IMG/VR virus record: IMGVR_UViG_2602041658_000005
Location: 15,174-79,173 of that record
Reading direction: 5' to 3' (one strand)
DNA length: 64,000 nucleotides
From: a virus
Taxonomy: Duplodnaviria > Caudoviricetes
Of the stretch, positions 11,435-26,747 are shown one piece after another (the first letter of the stretch is position 1; each line of letters begins with the position of its first letter). The position numbers and the translations under genes were made by a program. The notes below the pieces were generated by a model, which saw nothing but the letters and a program-made list of their open reading frames with translations, was not told the DNA's origin and ran no database searches.

Positions 11435-11442
11435 TACCTTTG
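11435..11442 (+). promoter_or_regulatory. Bacteroidota -7 promoter element for the toxin-antitoxin operon
   Basis: TACCTTTG shortly upstream of the ATG at 11466. Confidence 0.6.
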
Positions 11443-11465
11443 TATTGCAACAAAGAAATTTGACC

Positions 11466-12466: not shown

Positions 12467-12521
12467 GGTTTAATGTCTTTGCAACAAAACACATTTCATA
12501 CAGGTTATACTTTTGCAAAAC

Positions 12522-12555
12522 AAAAACCGCCCATACGTTTATTGCATGGGCGGCT
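12522..12555 (-). terminator. Intrinsic terminator between convergent genes
   Basis: CCGCCCAT...ATGGGCGG stem next to an A-tract. Confidence 0.55.
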
Positions 12556-12635
12556 GTGCTTATTACTGCTGCGACAGATTCGTAAAAACAAAAGTCAAAA
12601 TGTATGCTACTAAATTGACAGCTAATTATTTACTG

Positions 12636-12956
12636 CTATTCTCTATTATTTTCTTTTTTATGCTTATATATATAGATGCCCAAAGAACCAACTGCAATTA
12701 AAGTAAATATCCCGGAAATAGCCCAATTGCAAATATTGTACAAGGTTTCCTTATGGTTTAACTCATTCATATCCAATATATAATTTATAGTGTCATATTC
12801 TGTAGCTTGATGTAAAGAAACATCTGCATCATATTCAATAGACGAACGGATTCGCTCTGAACGCAAATTTTTGGAAGCGACCCTGAAAGCAAAAAAGCTA
12901 AATATTGCAAGTATCACGCTTGCAATAAAAGAGATAAGATATGCCTTAGTATTCAT
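12636..12956 (-). CDS. Two-TM membrane protein
   Basis: Two hydrophobic segments. Confidence 0.65.
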   Translation of the reverse strand: MNTKAYLISFIASVILAIFSFFAFRVASKNLRSERIRSSIEYDADVSLHQATEYDTINYILDMNELNHKETLYNICNWAISGIFTLIAVGSLGIYIYKHKKENNRE

Positions 12957-12996
12957 ATTGTATAATGATTTTTTGATTAGTACACGAACAAGAAAA

Positions 12997-13710
12997 TTAT
13001 TTTATTTCTTTTTTTATTATGTCAAGGATAGTCTTGTTACATTCAACAAGTTTTTTTGCGTTTTTTATTCTTGCTATATATTCTTCAGAAATCTCGGAGA
13101 AATTTATAAAATCATCAATACTAAGAATTTCGTCTGTCTGTACTCCTTCTTTTCTAATTTCTATTTTATTAAGCAAAGTGTCAGAAACCGCATAATATGT
13201 CTTTAGATGCTTCTCCCCTTTTTCGGTTACCCTTGCTGTTATTTTATATTGTAAAAACGTCTTACCTTTTAACGTCATAAATTTATTATACCTACTACGT
13301 AAAGTTTCCCCAAACCCATTTAAAATTGCAGAAATGTCATCAGAGCCTAAAGACATTGCTTCGTTTAATAAATCTAAATGCTTATACATAGCTTCTTTGA
13401 AAATAGGGTTTCTATGAGTTAGACCATGTAATTTTGGATTTTTTAATGCTTTGCTAATTTGGTCAGATTGCTTGCGATTGATTTTATTTATTGAATCATA
13501 AGTTTGCTTTAGTTCCTTTAAGAGGGATTGAGCTTCTTTTATGGTTATTGTATCACATGAATCAACAGAGACTATTTCGTCCAAGTTCTTCGGATCATCA
13601 AAATGGGTGCTTACATAGTCTTTGAAAGCGGTTTTGACTTTTCTTTTGTTCTGGTCAACGCATGAAATCAGACACATTAAAGCACATAATATAAAAATAA
13701 TATTTCTCAT
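12997..13710 (-). CDS. Lipoprotein of unknown function
   Basis: Signal peptide ending LIS-C. Confidence 0.75.
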   Translation of the reverse strand: MRNIIFILCALMCLISCVDQNKRKVKTAFKDYVSTHFDDPKNLDEIVSVDSCDTITIKEAQSLLKELKQTYDSINKINRKQSDQISKALKNPKLHGLTHRNPIFKEAMYKHLDLLNEAMSLGSDDISAILNGFGETLRSRYNKFMTLKGKTFLQYKITARVTEKGEKHLKTYYAVSDTLLNKIEIRKEGVQTDEILSIDDFINFSEISEEYIARIKNAKKLVECNKTILDIIKKEIK

Positions 13711-13797
13711 AATTTATAAATTAAAAAGTTATACATATACCCACGCAATCGGATGGGACTGCGTGTGGTTGTTTCTGTTTCATTTTCGTATACATCT

Positions 13798-14253
13798 CTA
13801 AGGATTGATTTCTTTATGAAATCCGGAACCGAATCGTGTGAAAGCAATACGACTGTCAGCTTCAAATTTTTCCATTTTTGTTCTCGACATTTTTACTCCA
13901 TATTTTTGATTGATTGCGCTCGTATTTGCAAGCCCTTTGTCAAACAAAGGAATCTCGTCAAGATAATATGCTACAAATCTATTTTTTCCTTTGTCAGACG
14001 AACCTATAATTTCCATTCTTCTGTCAAGTCCATTTGCATAAACAGTGCAAAGTAATACGCAATATGTAGTTGAATCAGTGTACTCTTGTTCTATCTCGTA
14101 TACTTTTACTTCTTTTCCATATTCACTTTGCAATGATTTCTCTATTTTTTTAGCATAGTCAAATGATGCTTCAATTATAGACCTCTTTTGGCACGCACTG
14201 AACGCCGCCATTGCTACAACGGCAACGAACATAATAGATAAAAGTCTTTTCAT
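13798..14253 (-). CDS. Lipoprotein of unknown function
   Basis: MKRLL...AAFSA-C lipobox. Confidence 0.75.
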   Translation of the reverse strand: MKRLLSIMFVAVVAMAAFSACQKRSIIEASFDYAKKIEKSLQSEYGKEVKVYEIEQEYTDSTTYCVLLCTVYANGLDRRMEIIGSSDKGKNRFVAYYLDEIPLFDKGLANTSAINQKYGVKMSRTKMEKFEADSRIAFTRFGSGFHKEINP

Positions 14254-14544
14254 TTTTATAATTTTAGAATTAAAAGAATTATTTATATATTTGTTGTTTG
14301 ATTTGCAAAAATAAACAAAATATTAAAATAAAGAAGGGTCGTACTATAAAAGTTTTGTTATAATTAGTTAAAACAATTCTACTTAATAGAAATGTGATGT
14401 ATATTGCGTTCTTTTATTTAAACTTGCTATCCGTGTAGAGTTATTAAGAAAAAAAAGCAAACAAGCAAATAAAAATTTAGCTATATTTATTTTATTGCTT
14501 CGTACTTTTAACTGCTTCGTACTTTGGATAATAGGGCGCAAATA

Positions 14545-14583
14545 AAAAGAAAAAGGCTGCCACGAATCACTTCGTAGTAGCCC
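14545..14583 (-). terminator. Probable terminator of the leftward early operon
   Basis: GGCTGCCACGAA...TTCGTAGTAGCC stem followed by a U-tract on the minus strand. Confidence 0.55.
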
Positions 14584-14656
14584 GTAATAATAATAATTTA
14601 AAATTTTAATTATGAAAAATTTAATACTTAAACAGCAAGTCGCTTCTTGCTAAAAT

Positions 14657-15529
14657 TTATATATTTTCTTTATCAAAGTAAGTGTTTAGAATATCACCAA
14701 TCATTTTACTTGCCTCTTCCATTTTTAAACCATCTTCCATATAAAGGATTTGTTTTGCTAAATCTTCTATTTCGTTAATCTCATCGAAATTATCTTTAAA
14801 AGAAGGTAACGCTTCTATCTTCATGATTAATGCGCTGATTTGGGTAGTAACGAATATAAATTTTACGCGATATTCGTAAATATCAGCTAAATCTACGGCA
14901 TACTGCATAGATGCATCATCTGAAGACAATTCTATCGTACTTCCATTCTGGCTTATTTTAAAAGGTTTTATACCATATTTTTTTTCATATTCTAAAGCTG
15001 AATTTGTCGAAGCGAAATCTATTAATAGTTGGAAAAATATTCGTATATCGAACGCATCAAGAGTGTTTTTTAAAACTTCATCTGTATCGTCCGGACAAAG
15101 ACAATGACGCATAGTATATGGTTCAAGAACACTATTTGGTATATTCTCTAAAACAAGGCTACCACCAGCATCTTTGTCGGTAGGTAAGATGTGTCCTTTC
15201 TTTATTCTTTCTAACCTTTCATTTTCTGCAAAAGTACGCCATGTCGAAGGGTAATACTCTGATGCATAAAAGAGGATATTTCTCAAAAAAGGTAAAATAG
15301 CGGATACATATTCATGAAACAACAAAGAATTTACATACATCTTGTTTTTCTTGTCATCTTTCGTTTCGATAAAAGACTTTGGCTTTGAATACGCGTACAT
15401 AGGGAAAGCCAATTTAACACCTTTGTTAAAAAACTCGCATAGCTCTTCATCGCCTTTTAATAAATGAAAATTTTTATCCATGTTATAATTTGTTTTTTTT
15501 AATCTTAATATATACGCTTTTAGACGCAT
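14657..15529 (-). CDS. Hypothetical protein (start may be at 15481)
   Basis: Long ORF. Confidence 0.65.
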   Translation of the reverse strand: MRLKAYILRLKKTNYNMDKNFHLLKGDEELCEFFNKGVKLAFPMYAYSKPKSFIETKDDKKNKMYVNSLLFHEYVSAILPFLRNILFYASEYYPSTWRTFAENERLERIKKGHILPTDKDAGGSLVLENIPNSVLEPYTMRHCLCPDDTDEVLKNTLDAFDIRIFFQLLIDFASTNSALEYEKKYGIKPFKISQNGSTIELSSDDASMQYAVDLADIYEYRVKFIFVTTQISALIMKIEALPSFKDNFDEINEIEDLAKQILYMEDGLKMEEASKMIGDILNTYFDKENI

Positions 15530-15589
15530 TTAAATATTTTTTTTCGTACTCTTTCGTACTCTTCCGAACTAAGGGCAAACGTTTTGAAT

Positions 15590-16165
15590 TTATTCTATAG
15601 GAACGGTAGTCCTATATAATAGCTCTTCGCCCACAGGCTTATTTTGAAATATATCCATAGTTTTCCCTTTAAATTTAGGGTCGGTAAGTATATAATCTAT
15701 TCCCGAAAGTAGAGAATGTTCATCAAACACTGCGTGTTCATGATCATCTTTTTCAGAAATCATTAAAATGTCATGTAAGGCTCTAATATGAAAACGACTA
15801 TACCCTTGCACCATATCATAAAAAGCGCAAGTAATATCAATATATTCCTTGCACTCTGTGTAAAAACCTAACGGACTCCACGATGTAATAAAATCGCATT
15901 CTGCCCAATCCGAAAATACAGCGAAAGGGTAATCTATATCATCACCGGGCTGGAAGGTCAATACCGTATGTGTAGGGTGTTCGCTTCTTAATTTTACCGT
16001 ACAATACCAACAATCGCGATCAATTTCATTACCTTTAAAATTGGTAAAACAATCGAAACCTTGTAAATGGAACCACGGTTCGTACATATCGTACAATTCA
16101 AAACATTGCTTTTCAAAATCTCTAAATGTTTTGATTTTTTCTTTTGGAGGAATATAATAATCCAT
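15590..16165 (-). CDS. Hypothetical acidic/aromatic protein
   Basis: ORF; ATG of MDYYIP preferred as start. Confidence 0.65.
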   Translation of the reverse strand: MDYYIPPKEKIKTFRDFEKQCFELYDMYEPWFHLQGFDCFTNFKGNEIDRDCWYCTVKLRSEHPTHTVLTFQPGDDIDYPFAVFSDWAECDFITSWSPLGFYTECKEYIDITCAFYDMVQGYSRFHIRALHDILMISEKDDHEHAVFDEHSLLSGIDYILTDPKFKGKTMDIFQNKPVGEELLYRTTVPIE

Positions 16166-16532
16166 GTGCAATAAATTTAAAATATTGATTTGTTTTAGAA
16201 TAATAGGCAAGTGCAAATTTACCTATTATATCCCACTTTTGTGGAGAGAGGAGTCTTTTTAATACTTGTAAATACTATTTAAAAGTGTGAAAAGATTTTC
16301 GTACATCTTACTATTTTACCTTTTATGTATCTTTCTTTTGAATAAAAAAACAATACAAATAGCAGTCTTATAGCATAAAGCCATCTTTTTGCTGTTTCTT
16401 TTTTTGTTCTGACGGCTTTTTATGTTTCTTTCGACTAATTGTCTATCAAAAAGATTTTGAAGCGTCATACGAAGAAAACGCGCGCTTGTGTATTTTCTGA
16501 AAAAACAAAGACATCGTACTTTTAGCTAATTA

Positions 16533-16799
16533 CTATCTGTTGTAAATTATAGATAGTTTATAGTTTTCAACGTTTTTCATTGATTTACGTTGAACGCTAT
16601 TTGAACAACCTATTGCTGAGTAATTTCTTTCCTCAAGGCTTAATAAAGCGTTCGCGAAGTCCATTATAGAAACATCTTCACCATAACTATCAAGTCCTTT
16701 GTATTCAGATTCACAAAAGTTATCAACGTACTTATTCATTCTCTTAAACGAATTTTTTAGAAGTTCTTTTACTTCTTTTCTGAATTGTTCCTTTTTCAT
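16533..16799 (-). CDS. Small early-type protein
   Basis: ATG after hairpin and AT-rich leader (MKKEQF). Confidence 0.65.
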   Translation of the reverse strand: MKKEQFRKEVKELLKNSFKRMNKYVDNFCESEYKGLDSYGEDVSIMDFANALLSLEERNYSAIGCSNSVQRKSMKNVENYKLSIIYNR

Positions 16800-16876
16800 A
16801 ACTATATATATATTTAAATTAAACATCGTACTTGCCACAACGATTAAGATGTAGCAAGCTGTAATAATTCAAATGG

Positions 16877-17092
16877 TTATAAGGTCAGTTCTTTTTGAAT
16901 AGCACCGATAAATATATACTCTGCTTGAGATTTCGTGTGTGCATACTCGCAGGTCTCCGCAATTTTGTCGCCAAACATATTGAGGATAACCGTTTCTATT
17001 TTGTAGCGGTTGCCTGACCTTTTGTACAGATAAATTTTTGCCGTTGCCCCATCTTTACGGTCATGCTCGAAAAATGATGTGAAAATCCTCAT
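16877..17092 (-). CDS. Small early-type protein
   Basis: ORF preceded by a hairpin. Confidence 0.65.
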   Translation of the reverse strand: MRIFTSFFEHDRKDGATAKIYLYKRSGNRYKIETVILNMFGDKIAETCEYAHTKSQAEYIFIGAIQKELTL

Positions 17093-17184
17093 AATTTAAT
17101 TTAATAGTTTAATTGTTAATAATATCGTACTTTGCGTAAATATTAATTCACGCAAAGTTGTAAGACTTAAATTATTTTTTATTT

Positions 17185-17439
17185 TCACTTCCGTGAAAAA
17201 ATATCATAAGTGATAGCAAAAGCAGCCAGTTCCCTATCGCTTGTAAAAACATCTTCTTTAAATTTGTAAAGCTGTTTTAGCAAAGGTTTTAATAATTCGT
17301 CTTTTATCAAACTTTCACCTTTGAGGATCAGCTCCTCTGGCGTGCTAAAATAATCGTACAGCATTGCATGTACACCATCTAAAACTTTACTAAAAAGAGC
17401 AATATCAAAATTTTCCTTTTCAAAAAATAATTTTTCCAT
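17185..17439 (-). CDS. Small early-type protein
   Basis: ORF in the operon. Confidence 0.6.
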   Translation of the reverse strand: MEKLFFEKENFDIALFSKVLDGVHAMLYDYFSTPEELILKGESLIKDELLKPLLKQLYKFKEDVFTSDRELAAFAITYDIFSRK

Positions 17440-17455
17440 AATCTTCTTTTTTTTA

Positions 17456-17671
17456 TTAATAGATATATAGCGAACCTTTTTGCTTGCAAAGTTTTTTCAA
17501 ACTTTCTAAATCTTTTCTCTTTGGATATTCCTCGTGATACGTGGCATCTATCAACGGCATGTCGTTTGTTGTTGTACTCCATTGCTTACCAGTAGTCGGG
17601 CTTGTATAAGTTACTTTGTAATGTCCATAACCAGCGAACTCAAATCTGAAATCTGTTAATTCTGTTTTCAT
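17456..17671 (-). CDS. Small early-type protein
   Basis: MKTELTDFRFEFAGYGHYKVTY; preceded by a hairpin. Confidence 0.7.
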   Translation of the reverse strand: MKTELTDFRFEFAGYGHYKVTYTSPTTGKQWSTTTNDMPLIDATYHEEYPKRKDLESLKKLCKQKGSLYIY

Positions 17672-17757
17672 AATCGTATAATTTTTAGTGAATAATAATT
17701 TTATCGTACTTTGCGTAAACGCCAATTCACGCAAAGTTTTTATTTAATTCGTGAAGA

Positions 17758-18018
17758 TTAAGAAACCTCTTCTATAAATTGTTCTATTGTTTTGCACCAT
17801 ACGGCATCCCTTTGCGCAGTGTTTGCTGTATCGCAGTACACTAACACGCACATCTTACCGTTCAAGCTATAAGAAACGTCTATAATTTTTCTTTGCGTGG
17901 GGTGCATGAATTTTTGAATGTGATAATACTTGTTCTTCACTTCTTCTATCATTACGGGATTTAAGCCGCAAGCACTATAAAGATTATTTAGTGCTTTTTT
18001 AAAAGTCTCTTTTTTCAT
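17758..18018 (-). CDS. Small early-type protein
   Basis: MKKETF; preceded by a hairpin. Confidence 0.65.
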   Translation of the reverse strand: MKKETFKKALNNLYSACGLNPVMIEEVKNKYYHIQKFMHPTQRKIIDVSYSLNGKMCVLVYCDTANTAQRDAVWCKTIEQFIEEVS

Positions 18019-18090
18019 AATCTTAAAATTTTTATAATTAATAAATATTGTACTTTGCACGAAAATTACTTCGTACAAAGCTCTAAGGAG

Positions 18091-19086
18091 TTAATCCTTT
18101 TTCACATAAGCCCAGCTTGTGATTATAGGCTTGCACCAATAGCTATCAAAATCTTTATCAATAGGTTTTTCTTTGATTTTTCCAAAATACTTTTTGCAGG
18201 TCATTTCGACCCATAAATATTTTTTCTCGAACCTATGGTAATACAAGCGACAAAGATTATCACCAGCTTGTGGTTGGTAATTTTCATATTTAGAATAACC
18301 ATCAGGAGCAGGGTTTTCAGAAATAAATTTATTTATCATTTCCTCTTTTTTCTTTTGTTCCTCTGCTTCTTTCTTTTTTCGTTCTTCATACTCTTTTTCC
18401 CACTTTGCATTAAGCTCTTCATACTTACGTTTTTCTTCCGCTTTAATTTCTTCGTACTTTTTATGACCTTCTTCTAAAGTCATACCAGAAAGATTTTCAA
18501 AAAGTTCTGAAAAATTCTTTTCATAAAAGCAACAAATATTTGCATCGAGGCACATATAGCTATAAAATAGTCCTTGAGCAATGTAGCAAGAAACATTACC
18601 AACAAATAGACTTCTATCTATCTTTTTGGCTTCTTCTTCGTACTTATGCACAATCTCAAGGACTTTATCACGGTTGGTTTTCCAATCATTCGGTAAAACT
18701 TGCGTTTTGCGAATGTAAAAATCTGTGGAATTTTTTACAATTCTCCAATCTGTGATGGTCGAAAGCAAATTAAATAATTTTGCTTTTTTGTCGTGGTCAA
18801 TAGCATTATATCGTACTCCTACAGATTTATTTTTGTTCTGTATAAGATTAACATAACCGCCAATACAATTTGTAGAAAGCTCTGGAAAAATACCATGTAT
18901 CGTTATCTGTGTTTTATATTTAAACACATCAAACTTTTTATTCATCATTTCCTCAAGTTGTTCAATACTGCAACCGTTTTCAATACTTGTAAGATATTCT
19001 TGTGGAACTTTTTTGTTACAAGTATTGAGCTTGTGTTTCTTATCGTACTCGGTTTCAATACTGAAAAATTTTTCTAACTGTTTCAT
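18091..19086 (-). CDS. Hypothetical protein with coiled-coil segment
   Basis: MKQLEKF; E/K-rich region; preceded by a hairpin. Confidence 0.7.
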   Translation of the reverse strand: MKQLEKFFSIETEYDKKHKLNTCNKKVPQEYLTSIENGCSIEQLEEMMNKKFDVFKYKTQITIHGIFPELSTNCIGGYVNLIQNKNKSVGVRYNAIDHDKKAKLFNLLSTITDWRIVKNSTDFYIRKTQVLPNDWKTNRDKVLEIVHKYEEEAKKIDRSLFVGNVSCYIAQGLFYSYMCLDANICCFYEKNFSELFENLSGMTLEEGHKKYEEIKAEEKRKYEELNAKWEKEYEERKKKEAEEQKKKEEMINKFISENPAPDGYSKYENYQPQAGDNLCRLYYHRFEKKYLWVEMTCKKYFGKIKEKPIDKDFDSYWCKPIITSWAYVKKD

Positions 19087-19163
19087 AATTGCAAAAATTT
19101 TAGTTATTAATAAATATCGTACCTGCAAGATTGGCTAAAATCTTGCAAGTAAATTTTCGTGTA

Positions 19164-20096
19164 TTACTCGTCAGCCCAGTATGTCCACGTTTGCAATTTT
19201 TTTGTACCATATCTTTTTAAGTACGACTTGAGACGTTTTTCAAACTTTTCGTACTCTTGCTTTTGAGCTGCATAGCACTTTTGCAAATCCTCATCGGTTG
19301 CTTTTGTCAAACCGTCAAACCTCCAAGCCTTATCCTTTGCATCGTACTCGTTAAGAAAAACTATTGAATAAAGATTTGAATCGCTGTATTTCCTTGCAAA
19401 GTATAAATTCTTCGTACTTTCATAGGAGTCCTTTTTATTGCCTTCGAAAAGGTTTAATGCGTCCTGCATATCTGCAAGATTATTTGCAAGAAATTGTTTC
19501 TCGCCAAAATTTTCGCACGCATCATTTGCCGCATCGTAACTTTCTGTATCTGTCATACTATCGTGATAACCGAAACAGAAATTTGTTTCAATTTTCGGTT
19601 TTTCAAAAATAACAAGACCGCCGAAAGATGTACGCACACAGTTACTAACCTCCTTCAGGCAATAGCTCCGCATATGCTCACTAACCCAAATTTTGGAAAA
19701 TTCTTCTTTTAGTAAAAATTCGTGTGGCAAAGAATTTTTCTTAAATTTAATCGTACTAAATTCTTTAATTGACTGCAAATCTTGTTCGTACCCGTTCGCT
19801 TCGCACCATTCAGCAAATGCTTCCTGACGGTTGGCATCGTACTTTTTCAGAACTGCCAAAACTTTCCAAATTTCATCACTAATAAAACTTTCCCCAATCA
19901 TAGAATCAGAAACGTTTTCATAATCTTGAAACATAAATTCTGGGTCGCTTTCATCTTTGTGCAATCTTTTACACGTTTGCAAAAATTCGTTTTTGCTTTC
20001 GTACTTTGAAAGTTGTAACCATTTACCAGCAATTGAGCCGCTTGCATACTTTCCATAAGTGCCAACGTAAGCACTTGCTTGCATTAAATTTTTCAT
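19164..20096 (-). CDS. ardA: ArdA-like antirestriction N-terminal domain fused to an unknown C-terminal domain
   Basis: YVGTYGKYASGSIAGKWLQL...LHKDESDPEFMFQDYE. Confidence 0.8.
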   Translation of the reverse strand: MKNLMQASAYVGTYGKYASGSIAGKWLQLSKYESKNEFLQTCKRLHKDESDPEFMFQDYENVSDSMIGESFISDEIWKVLAVLKKYDANRQEAFAEWCEANGYEQDLQSIKEFSTIKFKKNSLPHEFLLKEEFSKIWVSEHMRSYCLKEVSNCVRTSFGGLVIFEKPKIETNFCFGYHDSMTDTESYDAANDACENFGEKQFLANNLADMQDALNLFEGNKKDSYESTKNLYFARKYSDSNLYSIVFLNEYDAKDKAWRFDGLTKATDEDLQKCYAAQKQEYEKFEKRLKSYLKRYGTKKLQTWTYWADE

Positions 20097-20181
20097 AATC
20101 TGAATTTTTAAATTGTTAATACTAAAAATAGAACCCCAACTAAATTTTACTTTAGTTAGGGCCTCGTACTTTGTCTTTTCT

Positions 20182-20454
20182 TTATAGCATTTTTGCTATT
20201 TCTGATTCTTTTAAGGCTTTTACAAATATTGTTTTAAAATGAGTATCATTGCAGTCATATTTATCATACCATTCGCAAATTGTACGAAGTGGAAAAACTT
20301 GCCTTGCTACATCAAAAGCTATTCTTACTTCTATGTTTTTATATGCTCTTTCTTTTTTCACAGTGCTTATATGCTGCATAAGCTGCTCCGGATTCTCTAA
20401 TTTTAGTTGTTTGAAACTTTTTAAAACCTCTGGATAAATTTCTTTTAATTTCAT
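20182..20454 (-). CDS. Small early-type protein
   Basis: ORF preceded by a hairpin. Confidence 0.65.
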   Translation of the reverse strand: MKLKEIYPEVLKSFKQLKLENPEQLMQHISTVKKERAYKNIEVRIAFDVARQVFPLRTICEWYDKYDCNDTHFKTIFVKALKESEIAKML

Positions 20455-20524
20455 GATTTTATAATTTTTAGAATGTTAATAATAAAAAGTAAGTACGAAG
20501 ATTTTTACATCTTCGTACTTTGTT

Positions 20525-20722
20525 TTATTTGTCCTCTAACATAAGAGAGAGCCGCTTATTTATTATTAAAAATCGTTTCCAAAAACGGCTGGGACTAATT
20601 TTTAAAATAACTATTAAATACATCGTACTTAAAAGTATTAGTACTAAATTGTTAGAAATAATTCCTATAAAAAAAGGTAGGAGTAAAAACATTCCTACCA
20701 AAAAAGTTTTAAAATCTTTCAT
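20525..20722 (-). CDS. Small membrane protein
   Basis: Two hydrophobic segments. Confidence 0.55.
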   Translation of the reverse strand: MKDFKTFLVGMFLLLPFFIGIISNNLVLILLSTMYLIVILKISPSRFWKRFLIINKRLSLMLEDK

Positions 20723-20741
20723 AACTCAAACGATTTAATGT

Positions 20742-20915
20742 TTATAGCTTTGTTTCATCCCAATATTCATTATTTACACATCCGTATATAGAATAACATA
20801 TAGAATAAGTACCTATTTGATCCAATTCTTCCTTCGCTTCCTCAAGCGTTGAGCAATTAGCAACAATGACTTCGCAACCGTCATCAACAACAACATAAGA
20901 ATCATACTTTTTCAT
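20742..20915 (-). CDS. Small acidic early-type protein
   Basis: MKKYDSY; preceded by a hairpin. Confidence 0.6.
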   Translation of the reverse strand: MKKYDSYVVVDDGCEVIVANCSTLEEAKEELDQIGTYSICYSIYGCVNNEYWDETKL

Positions 20916-20994
20916 ATTTTCTAAAATTTTTAAATTAAACATTCGTACTTGCAAGATTGGTTAGAATCTTGCAAGCTAATTTTACAATACCTTA

Positions 20995-21213
20995 TTAATA
21001 ACGGCGCCCATAACTATCTATATTTCCGTTATTATAAGTTTTTAAGACATTTTCCTCCTCGTCCTCATAATGATAGTTACAATTTTGCAACTTGTGGCGT
21101 AACTTTGCCTCCTTTGCACTATCATAAACACGTCTTACATCATACTTCCTCCAAATTGCTTTTGTAAATCGTGGAGCTACATTTTTTAATTCTGTTTCGA
21201 TATAAATTTTCAT
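20995..21213 (-). CDS. Small early-type protein
   Basis: ORF preceded by a hairpin. Confidence 0.6.
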   Translation of the reverse strand: MKIYIETELKNVAPRFTKAIWRKYDVRRVYDSAKEAKLRHKLQNCNYHYEDEEENVLKTYNNGNIDSYGRRY

Positions 21214-21310
21214 AACCTTTTATTTTTATAAATTGTTAATATTATTGATAAACAAGCACCGCCTTTAAAATCTTTCATTTAAAAGCGGCTTAAAAATCTT
21301 ACTAAAATAA

Positions 21311-21475
21311 TTATATAGTATAGTTATAACCAGCACCTTCACAGTGCCAGCACCCATTTTCTAACTTTGTTATCTTTTTATACAAAGTTGAAAGTTTCAC
21401 TTTCTTGACTTCCATTGAATTATATAAAGGCAATAATTCTAAAGCGGCTTGCTTTCTTGTTTTTAACTTGTTCAT
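21311..21475 (-). CDS. Small protein (54 aa) with CWHCEG motif
   Basis: Manual translation MNKLKTRKQAALELL...; preceded by a hairpin. Confidence 0.55.
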   Translation of the reverse strand: MNKLKTRKQAALELLPLYNSMEVKKVKLSTLYKKITKLENGCWHCEGAGYNYTI

Positions 21476-21582
21476 AATTGATTAATTTTTAATTTGATTT
21501 TGTTTTTATTCTTTATAAAAAGCACCGCGCAAAATTTTCACATTTTGCACGGCGTTAATATTTAGGACTTAAAAGCTAACTT

Positions 21583-21933
21583 TTAGATAAATTTTACTTG
21601 TCCGTTTATTTCTAAAGTTATTGCCTCCTGTAACATTTCCTTTTTAAGATTTTCGCAAATTTCTAAAATAGTATCTATATTTTCTTTTAATTGCTCGGAG
21701 GTACAATAACTATATACTATTTTAATTTTCTCAATAACAGTTTGTCCATCATTTGCAACCCAGCCTCCTACAGCATCAGATGCTGTAGCACCGCCAAAAA
21801 GAAGGGATAACTTCTTTATAATTTGCAAAACTTGTTGTTCGTTATTTACTTCTTTGTCAACGTCGACCGTTGATGGCACATAAATTGCTACTTTACAATC
21901 TAAATCAAACTTAAACTTTAATTCTTTTTTCAT
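21583..21933 (-). CDS. DUF3574-like (ferredoxin/PII-like fold) protein
   Basis: FGGATA...GGWV...E...V...QEAI pattern. Confidence 0.55.
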   Translation of the reverse strand: MKKELKFKFDLDCKVAIYVPSTVDVDKEVNNEQQVLQIIKKLSLLFGGATASDAVGGWVANDGQTVIEKIKIVYSYCTSEQLKENIDTILEICENLKKEMLQEAITLEINGQVKFI

Positions 21934-22034
21934 TTTCGTAAAATTCTAAAAATTAATAAATAAAAAGTGCCAGCTTTAAAATGTTTCATTTAAAACTGGC
22001 TTAAACAAAAAGCACCACGAAGTATATTTTGTTT

Positions 22035-22517
22035 TTATTTCTTTATATAGCTATAATAAAAGTTAGTAGCATCTTTATAATCGAAATTATATAATAACAT
22101 TGTTTCCTTTTTTATTCTCAAATCTTTCATATCATTTTTTAGCTTTTTATAGAAATGATCCAAATAATGAAAAAACAGTTCAGAGCCTTTGTCTTTAATT
22201 TCTTTTAATTCTAAAAGATCCAGTCGTGCCAATATGCATGTCCTTTGCACGGGGTGCATATTGTGAAAATAAGCTAAAGCAGCAGCCGTTCCAGCGTTAC
22301 TTAATTTGTTTAATTCTTTATTAGCATAAATAGAATCAGCACCGCCGCCGTTGTCGCTATCATTATCATTATTGATATTATCAATATAACGATCCTCCTT
22401 CATCTTTATAAAGGATTTAAGCCCATGTACCGGCACCCGCTGCAGTGCAGCCTCCAGCTCCCACTTGTTGTAATAAGTGGCTGGTATTGTTATTTCTTTG
22501 TTGTTGTTGTTATTCAT
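22035..22517 (-). CDS. Hypothetical protein
   Basis: ORF. Confidence 0.6.
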   Translation of the reverse strand: MNNNNNKEITIPATYYNKWELEAALQRVPVHGLKSFIKMKEDRYIDNINNDNDSDNGGGADSIYANKELNKLSNAGTAAALAYFHNMHPVQRTCILARLDLLELKEIKDKGSELFFHYLDHFYKKLKNDMKDLRIKKETMLLYNFDYKDATNFYYSYIKK

Positions 22518-22602
22518 TTTGATTTATTTTTTATGTTAGGTACTTTGTAAATATTTTTCAATTTATAAAGCATAAAAAAAGCGGCTTATTAAGCCGCTTT
22601 AA

Positions 22603-23418
22603 TTAATCGAAAATATCATTAACCACATCACATATTAATGATTTGTTAGCATCTTTTTCTTTTAGTTTTTGCAAAATTACTCGCAAATCATTTAACAAGC
22701 TCCCAGCTTTATTTGCTGCCTTTTTTACTTTGTTAAATTCTTTTACGTAATAAGAAAAACTAACAACCGCTTTTATATAATTTGTTCGATTTAAATCTAA
22801 CTTCTTATAATAAACAGTCCCAGTGTGTGGATGACTGTATATATCATTAATAGTGATTGTTGTATAATTGTCTTTGCGTTCATTGTCTTTATTTTCATTG
22901 TCATTTTTAATCGTATCAGACAAAAAACAAATTACATAACCATCTTTTACTATTTTTTTATAATCAAAATTATTATAAAAAACATTGTCTATTAGTGCTT
23001 TAATTTCTGAATCTTGTAAAATTTGCTCAAAAAATTGCACCGTTGGTGTATTTTCTATTTTTTCAATTTCTTCTTTATTCTCATCCTCCCAGCTTTTTTT
23101 AACCGCCTTTAATGCGCCTTCGAAAGCGTTTGAATCAACGTTTTTTAAAGCGCCAAAGGATGTCATAAAGTTTTTATATTTTTCTGATCCTTCAAAAAAT
23201 AGTCCCGTCTTATTATCTAATAACTTTTTGAGTTTTTTTGTTTTTGATTCTTCTTTAATATTAGAATCATCACAATTAGATTTGTTACTTTTAGTTGTGG
23301 AGTTGTCCTCCACATTTAAGCCTTCATTTTCTAATTTGTTACTGTTTTCAATTTCTTTTTTGGTATTTTCTGAAATATTTAAATTCTCAGAAAACTTTTT
23401 GTTTTCTAAATTTTTCAT
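22603..23418 (-). CDS. Hypothetical protein, first gene of the leftward operon
   Basis: 271-aa ORF. Confidence 0.7.
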   Translation of the reverse strand: MKNLENKKFSENLNISENTKKEIENSNKLENEGLNVEDNSTTKSNKSNCDDSNIKEESKTKKLKKLLDNKTGLFFEGSEKYKNFMTSFGALKNVDSNAFEGALKAVKKSWEDENKEEIEKIENTPTVQFFEQILQDSEIKALIDNVFYNNFDYKKIVKDGYVICFLSDTIKNDNENKDNERKDNYTTITINDIYSHPHTGTVYYKKLDLNRTNYIKAVVSFSYYVKEFNKVKKAANKAGSLLNDLRVILQKLKEKDANKSLICDVVNDIFD

Positions 23419-23964
23419 AACTTAAAAGTTTTTTAATTTGTTATTATTGTTATTATTATTATTGTGTGGGGGGCTTATTTTCCAAAGGTACTCCCACGTG
23501 TTTTTGTTTTTGCTTATTATTTTATTTCAGATGCACAAACAAGCAAACAAACTAACATCAATTAATTAGATTTATATATTTAAGAATCTTTTTTTTGTCT
23601 TATTTTTCAAAAACAAAAAAAAACAAATAAAACTACATTAACCACTTGATATATTGCAAGTTAATTATATCAAGTAATTAAGCAGGATCCACGCCTTCCT
23701 CCGGTCGTGTGCATGAAAGTAAGACAAAGATTTTTTAAAAGTTTGCAAAGTAAAAATTTTATTTATATCTTTGCACCGATTTTGTGAATCAAGCAAAAAT
23801 ATTTTTTATTTTTGAGTAGCTAAAAAAACTTGCAAGGTTATATTTTTAGCTACTTTTTTTTGCTTTCAAATTTTCAAAAAGTAAAACAGTTAGTAGCTTT
23901 ATTACATTGTTGTTATTGCTACTGTCTGTAAAAGTAACCGCCGTTATCTTTTTTAATTACATAA

Positions 23965-24094
23965 CAAAGGTAGTAAATTTTGTTTATTAATCCAAATTTA
24001 AAGGGTTGTTTTTTCGTTAAATTTTGCAAATAAAATTACCACTACAACAAAGTAAAAAATATTTACATTTTCACAAAGGACTAAAACAAAGATA
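23965..24094 (-). promoter_or_regulatory. Tandem leftward Bacteroidota-type promoters
   Basis: TACCTTTG at 23965-23972 with TTTG at 23993-23996; TATCTTTG at 24087-24094. Confidence 0.6.
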
Positions 24095-24142
24095 ATAAGT
24101 ATCATTATTATTATTGTATCTGTGTATATGCAAGTTGCTAAG

Positions 24143-24326
24143 ATGTATAATGTATAATGTATATAAGGTTATAAGGTTATAAGGATATAAGGATATAAGG
24201 ATATAAGGATATAAGGATGTAAGACGTATATATAAGGTAATAGATAGGAGGTAATAGATAGTAGGGAGTAGGGAGTAGGGAGTAGATAAGGTAAGGTAAG
24301 GTAAGGTAAGATGTATATATATAAGG
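24143..24326 (+). repeat. Compound tandem repeats
   Basis: TATAAGG(T/A) x7 (24162-24217), GGTAATAGATAG x2, GTAGGGA x3, GTAAG x4-5. Confidence 0.9.
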
Positions 24327-25259
24327 CTGTAATTAAGGCAATAAGAGAGTCAGGAGGGAGGCGATTCTTAATAGTTTGAGAGTGTAAGAGAGGAGGTTAT
24401 ATTTTCGTTGTAAGTTGTTGTTTATCAATAAGATAGGTTATACAAATAATGTATCTTTTTTTTTTAGTAGTAAGGGGGGGGTAACCCCTTAATGAAAGCA
24501 AAGAGTCCCTATTTGATTACCGGTCTAAATTTTTTATTTTTTTTTTTTGTTTTTGGGGTTGTCTATTGTTTAGGGTATTGGTTTAGTATTGGTTTAGTGT
24601 GTGTTAAGGGTGCATTGAGTGTATATGTAGAGCGTATGTGTAGAGTGTTAAAATGACGTTAAAAAAGTCATGTTTTTATGTTTTTGGGTCTTGTATGGAC
24701 TATTTTGTCATTTTATTTGACAATTTATTTTTATTTTTCGAGATTTTTGTTTAATCTTTTCAAAGTCTTTATTATAAAGGGTATCTTTGCATTGTTAGTG
24801 GACATATTTCTTAATTATTACCTATTTTAGGGTATCTATATAGGATATTTATATATATATTATATATATTTACTAATAAACGCGAGGAGATGAGTTTTAG
24901 AGAGTGTATTTTAGCGAAATTAGCGCGATATAGCGAAAAAATAGCGATAGATAAGAGAATGTGCCAAAATGGATAGAAAGTGCTTTAAAACGCACGTAAA
25001 ACAGATTTGAGCAAACATAATGTATGCGAGTAAGGAAGTTGTTTGTATTTTTAAGGTAAAGGTTTGCTGCTGTTTTTTTGCGAAAGATAGGTATTGTAGC
25101 TATCTTAGCAAACAGAGAAAGAGAAAAAAGGAAAAGAAAAAAAATAAAAAAAGAAAAGGAAATAAGAGAAAGACGAAAGACGAGTGAGAGAGAGAAAAAA
25201 AGGACGAGAAAGAAACCGTAAGAGGGAAACAAGGAATTGGATAGAGATAAGGAGAGTTT

Positions 25260-26747
25260 ATGGTTAGAAAGAGTAGTGTTAGTAGGGTTAGTAGAGTATG
25301 TTTAAAGGCTGAGGGTAGTTCTGATTATGTTCGTAGTATGGATATAGTGTCTTCGTTGTCGTTGTCGCTATATTCTTCTTTTAACAAGAAAGAGTTTCAG
25401 CGTGTGGTTATGGAGCCTCGTTTTGGGGATAGGGTATTTGGTTATGAGAACTGCGTCCGTAGTGCTTGTGCTAAGGTATTGAAGTATTATCGGGATCGTG
25501 TGTATTACTTCTCGGGTAAGTATTGGTCGGAGCTGTCTGGTGAGCTGTTAGAATTGTCTTTGAATGATGCTTTGTTGCGTTTCCGTCCTCAAAAGTCGGA
25601 TTTAGTAAAGGCTCGTGCTAACATCTTGCGTGCTGCTAAGCAAGGGGCTTCGCTTTCTCGCTTACGTCCGTCCCGTTCTGTGGTAGGCTTTAGTAATGGT
25701 GTGTATGATTTTACTGATGTAGACAATCCGGTGTATCACCCTTTTTCAGACCGCATGGACGTGCTGTCTATACTTCCTTATGCTTATGATGAGACAGCTA
25801 CCTGTCCTAAGTGGCTATCTTTTATGCGTTCTGTCCTTACCCCTGTACAGGTGTCTTTGTTGCAAAAGTATTTGTCTTTAGGTATAGCTCCTCGCGATGC
25901 TTCTTCTCGGAAGATAGAAGAGACGTTGTGGTTGGTGGGTAATGGTGCAAATGGCAAGAGTGTTATCTTTGAGGTTGTCAGTGCTGTTTTTGGTATAGAT
26001 AGTATATCTTCGGTATCTCTTCACAATCTCATACGTGGTGGTGATGAGCGTGCAAGGTTTATGGCTGCCATAGTGGGCAAGATATTTAATTATTGTACAG
26101 AGGTAGACTCTTCTGATATATCAAAATATGAGGGTAATTTTAAGTCGTTATGCTCTGGTGAGCGTCAAGAGGTGCGTTTGATAGGTAAGAATGTGGAGAT
26201 GACGTCAGACATACCTTATTTGGTTTTCAACATGAATAAGAAGCCGAGCAATAGGAGTATGGGAGAGGCTTTTATGCGTAGGTTGCTACTTATCCACTTT
26301 AGGACTACGGTGTCTAAGCACGATATGCGTCCGGACTTGGTAAAAGAACTATGTACGGAACTTAGCGGTATAAGGAATTGGCTTATTCAAGGCTATAAAT
26401 CGTTGAAAGAAGATGGGTTTAAGTTTGTCCCTACGAAAGAGAGTTTAGAGGAAACGGAGGAGTATCTATTAGAGAACGGTCAGACCATACAGATGTTTTT
26501 GCGTGTTAGAGGCTATAGACCTAATAGATATAGTGGTCATTGGAATGAGAAACCTAAAGCTGTGCCTGCTCAATCTCTGTACAATGACTATGTTACGTTC
26601 TGTGAGCGTAAGATGTATGAGGTAGAAACTCTAAATATGTTCGGCAGGGAGATGACGCGGTTAGGCTTTAGTAAACGTAAGCAGAGCAGCTATAACATCT
26701 ATGAGATTTTTAGCGACAATGAGATAAGTTACGCATTTAATGTTTAG
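25260..26747 (+). CDS. D5-like / P4-family SF3 helicase (primase-associated)
   Basis: FSNGVYD, CPKWLSF, Walker A GNGANGKS, FKSLCSGE, RRLLLIHF. Confidence 0.88.
   Translation: MVRKSSVSRVSRVCLKAEGSSDYVRSMDIVSSLSLSLYSSFNKKEFQRVVMEPRFGDRVFGYENCVRSACAKVLKYYRDRVYYFSGKYWSELSGELLELSLNDALLRFRPQKSDLVKARANILRAAKQGASLSRLRPSRSVVGFSNGVYDFTDVDNPVYHPFSDRMDVLSILPYAYDETATCPKWLSFMRSVLTPVQVSLLQKYLSLGIAPRDASSRKIEETLWLVGNGANGKSVIFEVVSAVFGIDSISSVSLHNLIRGGDERARFMAAIVGKIFNYCTEVDSSDISKYEGNFKSLCSGERQEVRLIGKNVEMTSDIPYLVFNMNKKPSNRSMGEAFMRRLLLIHFRTTVSKHDMRPDLVKELCTELSGIRNWLIQGYKSLKEDGFKFVPTKESLEETEEYLLENGQTIQMFLRVRGYRPNRYSGHWNEKPKAVPAQSLYNDYVTFCERKMYEVETLNMFGREMTRLGFSKRKQSSYNIYEIFSDNEISYAFNV

Follow-up and report, generated by a model that had tools for sequence, protein, structure and literature searches.

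Why should one short word be crowded, almost always in the same orientation, into a single part of a phage operon? Within the window (the whole 64-kb stretch of DNA analysed), an exact word search finds 31 plus-strand copies of TCGTAC at 14339-20948 and three in reverse orientation (19221, 20282 and 20493), and the only plus-strand copies outside this field are at 7299 and 8908. These figures bear out the preliminary description, which had listed the 31 copies at precisely these coordinates with three reversed, had found only two before the field and had put the chance expectation at about one. Both strands of the 64-kb window together hold 44 matches versus 15.2 ± 3.7 in 100 dinucleotide shuffles, none of which reaches 44, and 31 of the 33 plus-strand copies in the 79,173-bp contig lie within the field. 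The genes of the field are on the minus strand, so the transcript-sense form of the word is (a)GTACGA and TCGTAC is its antisense reading; the orientation first reported stands, but the meaningful strand is the coding strand, opposite to the one originally read. On that strand GTACGA is the most over-represented hexamer of the field (31 copies where base composition predicts 1.25, and 3 reverse complements), and A precedes it, i.e. T follows TCGTAC, in 24 of 31 copies. The borders are as sharp as had been claimed, the same operon being free of copies upstream (20949-23418) and downstream (12636-14338), and the reported enrichment of GTAC is likewise evident, 3-kb bins holding 18 and 25 within the field and 1-13 elsewhere.

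The 31 sense copies of the field (14339..20948, minus strand) divide into 16 within 13 called ORFs and 15 between ORFs. Selection on the nucleic acid rather than the protein had been proposed from the use of different reading frames, and both points hold. The in-gene copies occupy three frames (xxG-TAC-GAx 11, xGT-ACG-Axx 4, GTA-CGA 1), and their number compares with 3.0 ± 1.6 under a null of the kind that had been called for, preserving amino acids and codons, in which 0 of 2000 shuffles reach the observed count. Tyrosine before Glu or Asp is encoded TAC 11 : TAT 4 if the preceding codon ends in G, and 2 : 8 otherwise. In-gene copies also outlast saturated synonymous change: four sites are identical across five homologues with a third-codon-position identity of 0.55-0.61, and the four copies in a 331-aa gene of unknown function (18091..19086, minus strand) are perfectly conserved in 4 homologues at 74-80% protein identity. 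A further seven copies, varied in frame, fall in an ArdA-like anti-restriction gene (19164..20096, minus strand; 310 aa; Pfam ArdA, E 9e-13). The word itself is strict. Four pooled arrays hold 122 sense and 4 antisense exact copies, no single-mismatch variant exceeds 16, and among the 113 contexts left distinct after collapsing those at least 80% identical, the ±30 nt around the word conserve A at -1 (92/113) and -2 (71/113) and nothing else.

Related phages and a Prevotella prophage keep comparable same-sense arrays, with sense:antisense counts of 18:0 (L024), 26:0 (L025), 34:1 (L026), 42:1 (L038), 20:1 (L033) and, for the prophage, 22:0 (L039); these sources are partly redundant, in that L024 and L025 overlap L026, L165 and L166 are about the same, and the contig of L072 is L164. 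Arrays run at about one copy per 200-350 nt over 5-9 kb, with a hint of even spacing in three of eight (CV 0.69-0.72, P about 0.02) and not in the remaining five. Gene content is mosaic, most array genes not being shared between arrays and homology blocks being cassette-sized, and lineages with 31% protein identity retain the identical word over a GC range of 31-50%. The called coding sequences of 12 sources contain 140 sense versus 15 antisense copies, and genes that lie within the field on the opposite strand (L038 15126-15698 and 16285-18333; L039 1222-1794) have none in either orientation; the word therefore follows sense transcripts, the direction of which is inseparable from that of replication in lineages sharing one conserved module. 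A thin-field group has 6-11 copies and neither of the genes that head the denser arrays, and in an unrelated phage locus, L118, GGTACGA recurs every 10-11 bp in either orientation, in the manner of iterons or operators.

The operon runs leftward from a 1.8-kb AT-rich stretch (23419..25259, 27-35% GC) that holds no convincing ORF and no copy of the word on either strand. Divergent from it lies a D5-like primase/helicase gene (25260..26747, plus strand), whose synteny is kept in all array-bearing lineages, and the array adjoins the presumed origin/replication module. A sense-strand match to TAnnTTTG, the Bacteroidetes -7 box consensus, lies about 65 nt upstream of the first gene as a candidate operon promoter (23483..23490, minus strand), and host-type -7 boxes are rare within the field. 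Gene order, and only this, suggests that the operon is an early one, as had been supposed. Its proximal part (21258..22600, minus strand) is word-free and contains four terminator-like hairpins followed by T-runs (22600-22578, 22000-21969, 21554-21523 and 21289-21258). At the far end a 313-aa tyrosine recombinase (8831-9772), co-oriented with the operon and conserved at 65-88%, closes it, and several DNA methyltransferase genes are also carried by the phage.

Two genes at the head of the operon are candidates for a role in reading the word. The first gene (22603..23418, minus strand) encodes 271 aa with a low-complexity N-terminus and no known fold, belongs to a family conserved at the same position in array-bearing lineages and is the second candidate partner. 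The other, here called the domain gene (22035..22517, minus strand), encodes an all-helical candidate reader of 160 aa and no known family. Its C-terminal domain of about 75 aa heads every dense array examined except that of L039, whose 22 copies are accompanied by a domain gene detectable only as its N-terminal 47 residues. In several lineages the array begins with a tight cluster of 3-6 copies, spaced 10-22 nt, at 250-500 nt after the domain gene. A profile search with the C-terminal domain matched eight sources; downstream, each of them has 11-36 copies in the sense orientation and 0-3 in antisense. Loci retrieved by the domain protein alone had a downstream array in 7 of 7 cases (18:0, 15:1, 11:1, 15:0, 14:0, 14:0 and 25:0), one of them at 50% GC and 31% identity, a co-occurrence that may reflect common descent and not function, since array-bearing lineages share one conserved module of D5-like gene, gap, first gene and domain gene. 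Structure comparisons recognised no nucleic-acid-binding fold in the head proteins (Foldseek best E 2.2 and 0.097; VIA best Z 6.8 and 5.1), and the candidates showed no similarity to N or Q, no HTH and no likeness to stoperator-binding repressors.

Between genes the word is joined to a hairpin. When 92 intergenic-like sites of 10 sources are averaged without selection, the 5' arm falls at -28..-17, the loop at -16..-11 and the 3' arm at -10..+1, with the tail open from +2 onward, while the same averaging over 141 in-ORF sites is flat, with no average hairpin signal. The 256 word sites yield 60 distinct hairpins and 3694 control GT anchors yield 128; of the 60, 42 have a 12-bp stem and 37 a 6-nt loop. 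Stems vary in sequence, and compensatory change maintains hairpins of which only the geometry and the stem foot are conserved. When G.U and A.C were treated alike in hairpin calling, 52 word hairpins contained 72 G.U versus 5 A.C, as against 737 versus 289 in other hairpins of the same regions. Because G.U lies far above A.C and the stem sequences are variable, the hairpin folds on the sense strand, which favours the transcript over duplex DNA; the same hairpin could equally form in single-stranded DNA. It starts -1..20 nt after the upstream stop in 36 of 44 cases, and the next ATG follows the word's G by 21-44 nt in 31 of 43. The sequences that follow canonical hairpins do not form U-tracts, T reaching no more than 24/44 at its commonest position, so most of these hairpins are not obvious terminators needing antitermination. 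The first two bases of the word are paired in canonical elements, and predicted RNA accessibility of the word is average, at the 43rd-57th percentile. The word is not universally so placed relative to the hairpin: it lies in the 5' arm or loop in the thin-field group, as it does for some copies of the window.

A canonical element in the window (20935..20978, minus strand) has a 12-bp stem, a 6-nt loop and a 3' arm ending in AAGT, followed by ACGA, and adjoins the ATG of the next ORF. Others on the same strand lie between the ArdA-like and 331-aa genes (19109..19152, with the ATG 36 nt past the G), upstream of a 71-aa ORF (17696..17739, ATG at 17671) and at 16818..16861, where the word overlaps the ATG (GTACGATG) of ORF 16826-16533. 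A minus-strand variant with a 13-bp stem and 4-nt loop (17125 to approximately 17160) precedes the ATG at 17092. The intergenic elements 17125/17704 and 19117/20943 are paralogous. Identity between phages is 86-91% for shared hairpin and word elements, against about 75% for coding DNA; the word is the exact starting point of two homology blocks.

It is strand and folding, and only these, that point to RNA as the level at which the word may act. The reading preferred here, tentatively and at somewhat short of an even chance, is a signal acting at the level of RNA to control the operon as a whole, with the head proteins as its possible readers. Some factor would recognise the word in the operon RNA, whether nascent or mature, and so decide what becomes of the entire transcript; the word would come in two forms. 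One would be intercistronic punctuation, in which a stop codon and a few nucleotides lead into a hairpin with a 12-bp stem and 6-nt loop, the 3' arm ends in AAGU, and single-stranded ACGA and an A/U-rich leader follow before an AUG about 30 nt on; the other would be bare copies placed in ORFs through synonymous and amino-acid choices. The likeliest function would be read-through of the many intercistronic hairpins by a processive, repeatedly reloaded antitermination or anti-polarity device. Alternatively, the word may direct endonucleolytic processing or stabilisation, each upstream cistron being left with a protective 3' hairpin. The likeliest readers would be one or both of the conserved proteins encoded directly before the array, and the opening clusters resemble a loading site.

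In the N/nut system of lambda, nut sites occur once per operon in the order boxA then boxB, and the boxB hairpin is sequence-specific. The present array similarly sets a linear RNA word beside a hairpin in an early-left operon with terminators and a small head protein upstream of the first sites, but it has tens of sites, variable hairpins and a word 3' of the stem. Another parallel is found in Cluster K mycobacteriophages, where the parts of the published account used here describe SAS, an asymmetric 13-bp word of unknown function in 11-19 copies, nearly all in one orientation, confined to the non-structural half of the genome, upstream of gene starts and conserved between relatives; directly in front of about half lies an imperfect inverted repeat (spacer 4-13 bp), the two together forming ESAS (PMC3203893). 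An asymmetric, co-oriented word in many copies, the inverted repeat before it and its retention in relatives are common to both systems. However, SAS is tied to translation starts and, in those parts of the account, not reported inside genes, whereas the 7-nt phage word typically lies 21-44 nt before an ATG, has more than half of its copies in ORFs and is 2-3 times denser; ESAS arms have a subcluster-specific consensus where the present stems conserve only geometry and foot, and host phylum and phage family are unrelated (PMC3203893).

It is also possible, if unlikely, that the word acts in DNA, a phage protein such as a head protein binding duplex or non-template strand in an orientation-dependent manner to block or govern elongation and so damp potentially toxic accessory genes. 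The model would be the stoperators of Cluster A mycobacteriophages, described in the sections consulted as 13-mers read on duplex DNA by phage-encoded repressors of the L5 gp71 type, genome-wide in short intergenic spaces, sharing sequence with the promoter operator and oriented such that reversal abolishes repression (PMC9283540). Both systems have many asymmetric sites that track transcription and act along operons, the present word being strictly co-oriented; the 10-22 nt spacing at array heads is compatible with cooperative DNA binding, and the L118 repeats resemble operators or iterons. Yet no copy lies in the 1.8-kb regulatory gap, the expected place for an operator, the word has 7 nt as against the 13 of stoperators (PMC9283540), ORFs contain half of the copies and the array is limited to one operon. 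Duplex recognition, moreover, needs no compensatory hairpins of RNA type with G.U far exceeding A.C, and the candidate protein is encoded within the operon to be silenced.

Rather improbable is exchange of hairpin and word joints as cassette boundaries, by homologous recombination as for PeSL or site-specific recombination of a folded strand as for attC, with in-ORF copies secondary. The promoter-early stem-loop (PeSL) cassettes of T4-type phages and integron attC sites give each small accessory gene of a hyperplastic, mosaic region one repeated, co-oriented stem-loop, and attC sites are bulged and 57-141 bp long. The array has the same arrangement, with one co-oriented hairpin at nearly every cassette boundary, mosaic gene content, cassette-sized homology blocks (two starting exactly at the word) and elements better conserved than coding DNA; strand-specific folding also suits a folded single DNA strand, and a tyrosine recombinase closes the operon. 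That enzyme, however, is encoded at the far end, co-oriented, and is most simply the phage integrase, and the stems are perfect, fixed-length 12-bp helices without attC-type bulges or length, or any accompanying promoter consensus. Most copies lie in ORFs without hairpins (141/233 pooled; 16/31 in the window) and are conserved there, and selection for evolvability alone rarely fixes synonymous sites.

The Chi/KOPS-like option of the preliminary description is improbable; spelled out here, it would have host RecBCD/AddAB recognise the word (TCGTAC on the plus or GTACGA on the minus strand), which would protect replicating or entering phage DNA or stimulate recombination. Rec-less lambdoid phages do provide a precedent, Chi in LLS (23 sites, 20 in active orientation), MD8 (32/32 co-oriented) and P1 being described, in the portions of the source drawn on, as the most frequent word of its length, nearly one-stranded, clustered and running through genes regardless of codon usage (PMC12315714). 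The array also sits beside the presumed origin/replication module, and no recombination module was recognised among the scanned phage proteins, a weak point as most are unannotated. But Chi is the host's own word and abundant there, whereas in a Prevotella genome carrying a related prophage AGTACGA occurs 119+109 times (228) versus 243+223 (466) for a same-composition control, and AAGTACGA outside the prophage (33 forward and 41 reverse; control 56 and 66) is interspersed on a 2-Mb contig without replichore polarity. A word neither over-represented nor polarised in the host argues against a signal of this type, and at 1 per about 200 bp it is some ten times as dense as Chi in the reported Chi-rich phages (PMC12315714). 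The hairpin context and the skipping of opposite-strand genes are likewise unexplained. With this option set aside, an oriented recognition array under nucleic-acid-level selection, for a phage or host factor, is still the best general description, with the two co-occurring phage proteins as candidate factors.

Very doubtful is a target or decoy for a host or phage DNA-modification or restriction system whose site is asymmetric and 6-7 bp long (Type III, Type ISP/IIL or BREX-like); copies all facing one way would escape head-to-head cleavage, and their abundance close to the anti-restriction genes would titrate the enzyme. The hexamer is as strict as an enzyme site, the array surrounds ardA in a phage with several methyltransferase genes, and the host has the word at about half the frequency of the control. 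Avoidance accounts for the orientation, not for the 25-fold enrichment or in-gene conservation, and neither the geometry of the hairpins nor their G.U bias matters for recognition of a duplex; a term search of the main text of a Prevotella intermedia methylome and R-M study found GTAC, TCGTAC and GTACGA 0 times (PMC5608340). Absence of function, the array being a by-product of composition, codon usage, K-Y-E protein motifs or recent duplication of intergenic repeats, might be argued from the paralogous elements and the one frame holding 11/16 in-gene copies, but is effectively refuted by the codon- and protein-preserving null, the arrays and in-gene conservation in relatives, the 113 distinct contexts and the persistence of the word across distant lineages of differing GC.

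The array looks like an undescribed control signal for which the head proteins are candidate readers. On the best reading, the field is a selected, transcript-sense cis-signal, A-GUACGA, written through the leftward accessory (anti-defence) operon of temperate Prevotella/Bacteroidales siphophages.

All 31 plus-strand copies of TCGTAC listed for 14339-20948 in the preliminary description are confirmed, as are the 3 reverse copies within that field. Only 2 other plus-strand copies occur in the window, the whole 79,173-bp contig holds 33, of which 31 lie within one 6.6-kb block, and no copy of TCGTAC or GTACGA is present on either strand of 20949-26863, a segment that includes a 1.8-kb regulatory gap. 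All convincing ORFs between 12.6 and 23.4 kb are on the minus strand, therefore the relevant reading is GTACGA on the coding strand. There an A precedes the word in 24 of 31 field copies and an A or T comes after it in 29; it is written (A)GTACGA here. GTACGA is the top over-represented hexamer of the field, with 31 copies against 1.25 expected from composition; its reverse complement accounts for 3. Tandem pairs of the word at 14500-14522, 15544-15559 and 16080-16094, with spacings of 17, 10 and 9 nt, sit toward the distal end of the field, unlike the tight clusters of other lineages, which are proximal. On the plus strand, GTACGA at 26864, 27523 and 27700 falls within about 850 bp of the rightward operon, in the first genes after the D5-like gene, where about 0.2 copies are expected, and these sense-oriented copies may be a small second cluster.

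Sixteen field copies lie within 13 called ORFs (5,445 nt) and the remaining 15 in about 1.2 kb of intergenic DNA, at approximately four times the ORF density. The preliminary description had staked its reading on the enrichment outlasting an amino-acid- and codon-preserving null, and it does: when synonymous codons are shuffled gene by gene, 3.0 +/- 1.6 copies are obtained (maximum 10), and none of 2000 shuffles reaches the observed 16. Pooling codons across genes before shuffling gives 2.8 +/- 1.5 copies and shuffling codon order 1.4 +/- 1.2, again compared with 16. Codon choice follows the word, i.e. Tyr before Glu or Asp is encoded by TAC 11 times and TAT 4 times after a G-ending codon, but by TAC twice and TAT 8 times otherwise, while Tyr elsewhere uses TAT 63 times and TAC 24 times.

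The window is a siphophage-like temperate element with portal, large terminase and major capsid protein genes, two integrases and many antirepressors, and its distant DNA relatives are phages of Parabacteroides, Bacteroides and Alistipes. With the 331-aa mid-field protein as query, 15 metagenomic loci and one viral locus were fetched, and the comparable field that the preliminary description proposed to look for in relatives is present. Five loci carry dense same-strand fields, with sense:antisense counts of 18:0 (L024), 26:0 (L025), 34:1 (L026), 42:1 (L038) and 20:1 (L033), and in four of the five the leading hexamer is GTACGA or AGTACG. Their 331-aa homologues are 74-80% identical to the query, except in L033 (56%). 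A prophage of Prevotella sp. oral taxon 376 (L039), retrieved via its D5-like protein, has 22:0. In a further group, whose 331-aa homologue is about 57% identical, the clusters are thinner, at 6-11 copies. Loci L001-L018, retrieved by ArdA, are unrelated phages without a field, the D5-retrieved viral loci L020-L022 are fragments that end short of the operon, and an initial scan of genome contigs found nothing. A scan for a three-copy pattern mostly picked up ordinary tandem repeats; of at least 120 loci 80 were examined, and L072 and L044 alone proved informative. In L118, an unrelated phage of 49% GC, about 14 GGTACGA repeats occur at 10-11 bp spacing and in both orientations within one intergenic region (5526-6039), resembling iterons or operators, so that the same core word is seen in a clearly DNA-type arrangement.

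Array genes are mostly not common to these phages and homology comes in cassette-sized blocks, which argues that the word is a property of the operon and not of given genes. The 331-aa gene has four in-gene copies that all five dense-field homologues keep unchanged while the flanking codons differ, at a third-codon-position identity to the window of only 0.55-0.61, and the thin-field homologues have different residues where these copies sit.

Pooled word contexts comprise 166 sites, or 113 once contexts at least 80% identical are collapsed, and the only conserved positions within +/-30 nt are A at -1 (92/113) and at -2 (71/113). Exact copies number 122 sense and 4 antisense, every single-mismatch variant occurs at most 16 times, and information content is confined to 7-8 nt. 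The signal is thus a strict heptamer, neither a degenerate operator nor a two-block promoter. Inside coding sequences called by codon score in 12 sources there are 140 sense and 15 antisense copies. Genes on the opposite strand within an array lack the word in either orientation, as seen in L038 for a 190-aa gene and a UvrD-like helicase gene and in L039 for a single gene, while the sense-strand genes on both sides carry copies; the word therefore tracks sense transcripts and not merely a stretch of DNA. In all lineages the D5-like replication gene and the array operon point away from each other, so that the direction of transcription and that of a replication fork leaving the region are inseparable. 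The word-free insert is an opposite-strand module for a 190-aa protein with a weak DUF7726 match, at L038:15126-18333, where the UvrD-like helicase gene is added, and at L039:1222-1794. Even spacing of the word is weakly suggested, at P about 0.02 in three of eight arrays.

Intergenic copies are associated with a defined fold. When unpaired probabilities were averaged by position over all 92 intergenic-like sites from 10 sources, with no selection on structure, a hairpin emerged with a 5' arm at -28 to -17, a loop at -16 to -11, a 3' arm at -10 to +1 and open sequence from +2, the stem closing on the word's G and U and the tail beginning with ACGA. The same average over the 141 in-ORF sites (of 233 in total) is flat, with no hairpin register. 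An explicit search found 60 distinct hairpins among 256 word sites, compared with 128 among 3,694 control GT anchors. Of the 60, 42 have a 12-bp stem and 37 a 6-nt loop. With G.U and A.C scored alike in the search, the 52 word-anchored hairpins contain 72 G.U and 5 A.C pairs, against 737 and 289 in other hairpins of the same regions. Selection for the fold therefore acts on the sense strand, whether as RNA or as single-stranded sense DNA, and not on the duplex. Within the loop, position 2 is T in 29 of 33 and position 4 a purine in 33 of 33. In an alignment of 44 non-redundant canonical elements (30-nt hairpins closed by the word), both partners change at 9 of 12 pairs (183 cells); the 97.5% of paired cells is a circular figure, because the rows had been picked for pairing at 11 or more of the 12 positions. 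In 36 of 44 elements the hairpin begins -1 to 20 nt past the upstream stop codon, and the distance from G to ATG is 21-44 nt in 31 of 43, with a full range of 5-388. The geometry is not universal, as the thin-field group and some of the window's copies have the word in the 5' arm or loop. RNA accessibility of the hexamer gave no signal.

Two protein families are kept at the operon head. Every dense field has at its head the gene for a 160-aa all-helical protein (window 22035-22517). A profile of this protein's C-terminal ~75 residues matched 8 sources, all with 11-36 sense and 0-3 antisense copies downstream, and none of the tandem-repeat control loci. In L072 and L044, two further lineages with the same hairpin-word-leader-ATG units, the opening cluster of the array has 6 or 4 copies, and just upstream lies a gene for a shorter version of the domain protein. 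Viral loci retrieved by the domain alone have an array in seven of seven cases, starting 250-500 nt past the gene, with downstream counts of 18:0, 15:1, 11:1, 15:0, 14:0, 14:0 and 25:0; one of the seven has 50% GC and 31% identity, and there is redundancy among them, as L164 is the contig of L072 and L165 is about equal to L166. This is a small family: at E <= 1e-3, 1.84 billion representatives yield 55 clusters, and the domain always forms the C-terminus, in proteins of 36-212 aa. Pfam and PHROGs gave nothing meaningful for 45 family members, Foldseek (PDB, BFVD) and VIA-wide searches with the domain protein gave only generic helical matches (best Z 6.8) and nothing more specific than a three-helix bundle, and a protein atlas search gave no usable match. 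The second family is the operon's first gene (22603-23418), whose protein model is confident (mean pLDDT 79.7, core above 90) and likewise found only generic helical matches (Foldseek PDB, VIA-wide; best Z 5.1). Neither head family was detected in the thin-field group, and of the domain protein only the first 47 residues persist in the Prevotella prophage. Since all array lineages share one module, the co-occurrence of head protein and array suggests, but does not prove, that one of these proteins is the reader. A ~70-aa hydrophobic protein is encoded, in several lineages, by the gene that separates the domain gene from the opening cluster (L161:10302-10511, L162:367-582, L033:2747-2962 and L072:6037-6261); this gene has a conserved word copy (…F-S-T-R…) near its 3' end.

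Bacteroidetes promoters have a -7 box TAnnTTTG with TTTG at -33, and no host-type promoter pattern accompanies the word; sense-strand TAnnTTTG boxes lie upstream of genes only at 23490, 16221 and 14313. Canonical elements lack the GC-rich hairpin and immediate U-tract of intrinsic terminators, as their stems are followed by ACGA and then mixed A/T (T in at most 24 of 44 at any position). Only three field hairpins pass a terminator scan (20163-20132, 19151-19120 and 20520-20491) and most have no U-tract. The four canonical terminators are all in the word-free first 2.2 kb of the operon, as the four strong terminator-like hairpins on the minus strand of 21258-22600; three of these end in GGTGC/GGCAC and then a T-run, so that at least those copies of the AGCACC motif are terminator 3' feet. 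Rfam covariance models applied to 12000-26000 gave only four sub-threshold matches, near 22529-22676, and none in the field. Between the divergent operons, a 1.8-kb AT-rich stretch (23419-25259) with no convincing ORF, no recognised repressor gene and several TAnnTTTG boxes on both strands is likely to be a promoter or origin region. Just beyond the operon end and on the opposite strand, 11355-12466 (+) encodes a Panacea/SocA-domain antitoxin-like protein (Pfam E 1e-20) followed by an overlapping 151-aa ORF without a known family, a pair that is possibly a toxin-antitoxin system.

Given the observed enrichment, conservation, strand, fold and co-occurrence, the reading tentatively preferred for level of action, reader and outcome is that the word is read on the operon RNA (sense strand), partly in the measured hairpin context, by a factor loaded at the operon head. 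Such a factor could keep RNA polymerase going through the many intercistronic hairpins, i.e. antitermination; alternatively, the cistrons could be processed and stabilised.

Among published systems, the closest architecture is that of SAS/ESAS and the closest logic that of stoperators, yet the element lacks defining features of both, as well as of Chi, attC and intrinsic terminators. PMC3203893 describes SAS/ESAS of Cluster K mycobacteriophages as an oriented word among non-structural genes, of unknown function, tied to the translation initiation site and in about half of cases preceded by an inverted repeat with a short spacer. The word shares the single orientation, the restriction to non-structural genes and the preceding inverted repeat (60 hairpins at 256 sites, and dominant in the unselected intergenic average). 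It differs in its loose relation to translation initiation (G-to-ATG 5-388 nt and 141 of 233 sites inside ORFs), in sequence (AGTACGA, compared with 5'-GGGATAGGAGCCC) and in lineage, its relatives being Prevotella/Bacteroidales phages.

Stoperator-like DNA binding at the word is possible, at lower probability than reading on RNA. As set out in PMC9283540, stoperators are 13-bp sites in short intergenic spaces genome-wide, bound by a monomeric immunity repressor, with orientation that correlates with transcription direction and a site that doubles as the early lytic promoter operator. The orientation correlation holds for the word (122 sense to 4 antisense; 140 to 15 in CDS), but the absence of any copy in 20949-26863 leaves no operator at the early promoter, and a 7-8-nt word with 16 of 31 copies in ORFs and 31 of 33 in 6.6 kb is neither 13 bp, intergenic nor genome-wide. 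No repressor was identified in the phage.

Cassette recombination at hairpin-plus-word elements is another possibility of lower standing, for which attC is the model: imperfect palindromes of 57-141 bp with extrahelical bases, found only between cassettes, with IntI next to attI at the array head. A folded-strand site at the 3' end of each cassette, co-oriented, is common to both (placement in 36 of 44, G.U 72 against A.C 5), but word copies also occur inside ORFs, the hairpins are only 30 nt and the gene for the tyrosine recombinase sits distally in the array operon. The reading of the word as a restriction site is also possible, again with less probability than the RNA reading.

The Chi/KOPS-like option raised in the preliminary description is not supported by the one host genome examined. 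Rec-less lambdoid phages accumulate co-oriented host Chi (Zheng et al. 2025, PMC12315714), whose abundance and polarity in the chromosome are not shared by the word: AGTACGA is rarer in the Prevotella genome than its reversed control (228 against 466), and AAGTACGA outside the prophage occurs 33 times forward and 41 reverse, interspersed along a 2-Mb contig with no polarity. Chi copies in such phages also cluster toward the packaging end; the word is co-oriented, and its field is 15-24 kb from the terminase gene within a linear contig whose ends may not be those of the genome. Rec-less phages have no recombination module or RecBCD inhibitor of their own; here neither was recognised among the scanned proteins, most of which match no family.

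Mimicry and seed-pairing readings were rejected. The sarcin-ricin loop begins AGUACGA, but two suspected host rRNA operons, each with three AAGTACGA copies, had no Rfam match and encode integrases and an acetyltransferase, and G follows the word in only 11 of 113 sites; at the host locus, a density of 4 copies in 7.5 kb falls short of significance (19 of 200 shuffles). These loci (L040, G004:C3:621500-629000, and G004:C1:660-664 kb) are a duplicated integrative element of the Prevotella genome with four same-strand word copies; it encodes a GNAT acetyltransferase and, in tandem, two tyrosine integrases that have arm-binding domains. A tRNA minihelix (12-bp stem, ACCA-like ACGA tail) would be expected to show a T-loop signature, which the loop lacks (position 3 C in 1 of 33, position 5 A in 4 of 33), and small-RNA seed pairing finds no complementary copy in the 1.8-kb ORF-free gap and no special enrichment of wobble-compatible variants.

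Targeted searching of the literature on Prevotella prophages and stem-loops and on Bacteroides phage antitermination returned no description of the element, and searches of phage literature for the hexamers gave only primers and cos ends. To our knowledge, few genome-scale cis-signals are known in phages, among them the oriented short-word arrays Chi, stoperators and SAS/ESAS, two of which still have no full mechanism. The present array is unusually clean: the 7-nt word is strict, the hairpin keeps one geometry, Bacteroidales phages of gut, oral and other origin conserve the system, both candidate readers are proteins without known fold, and a cultured Prevotella lysogen carries an array. A bolder reading, which is unlikely, is that word and 12-bp hairpin form an RNA "licence code" marking each exchangeable anti-defence cassette, read by the small helical head proteins as a new protein family. 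If true, any word-bearing cassette would be expressed, or shut off, in step, in an integron-like cassette market whose shared currency is an RNA signal and not a recombination site, and the same principle would be expected with other words in other phage lineages. That such a licence, common to exchangeable anti-defence cassettes, is a categorically new system is given a clear minority of the probability.

The word is a simple metagenome marker for this class of accessory operon, and a portable operon-level control element for Bacteroidales genetics is a possible use. As the array is written on an operon of anti-restriction and accessory cassettes, understanding it would show how these phages time or protect the expression of their counter-defences in a phylum whose transcription and translation signals are unlike the E. 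coli paradigm.
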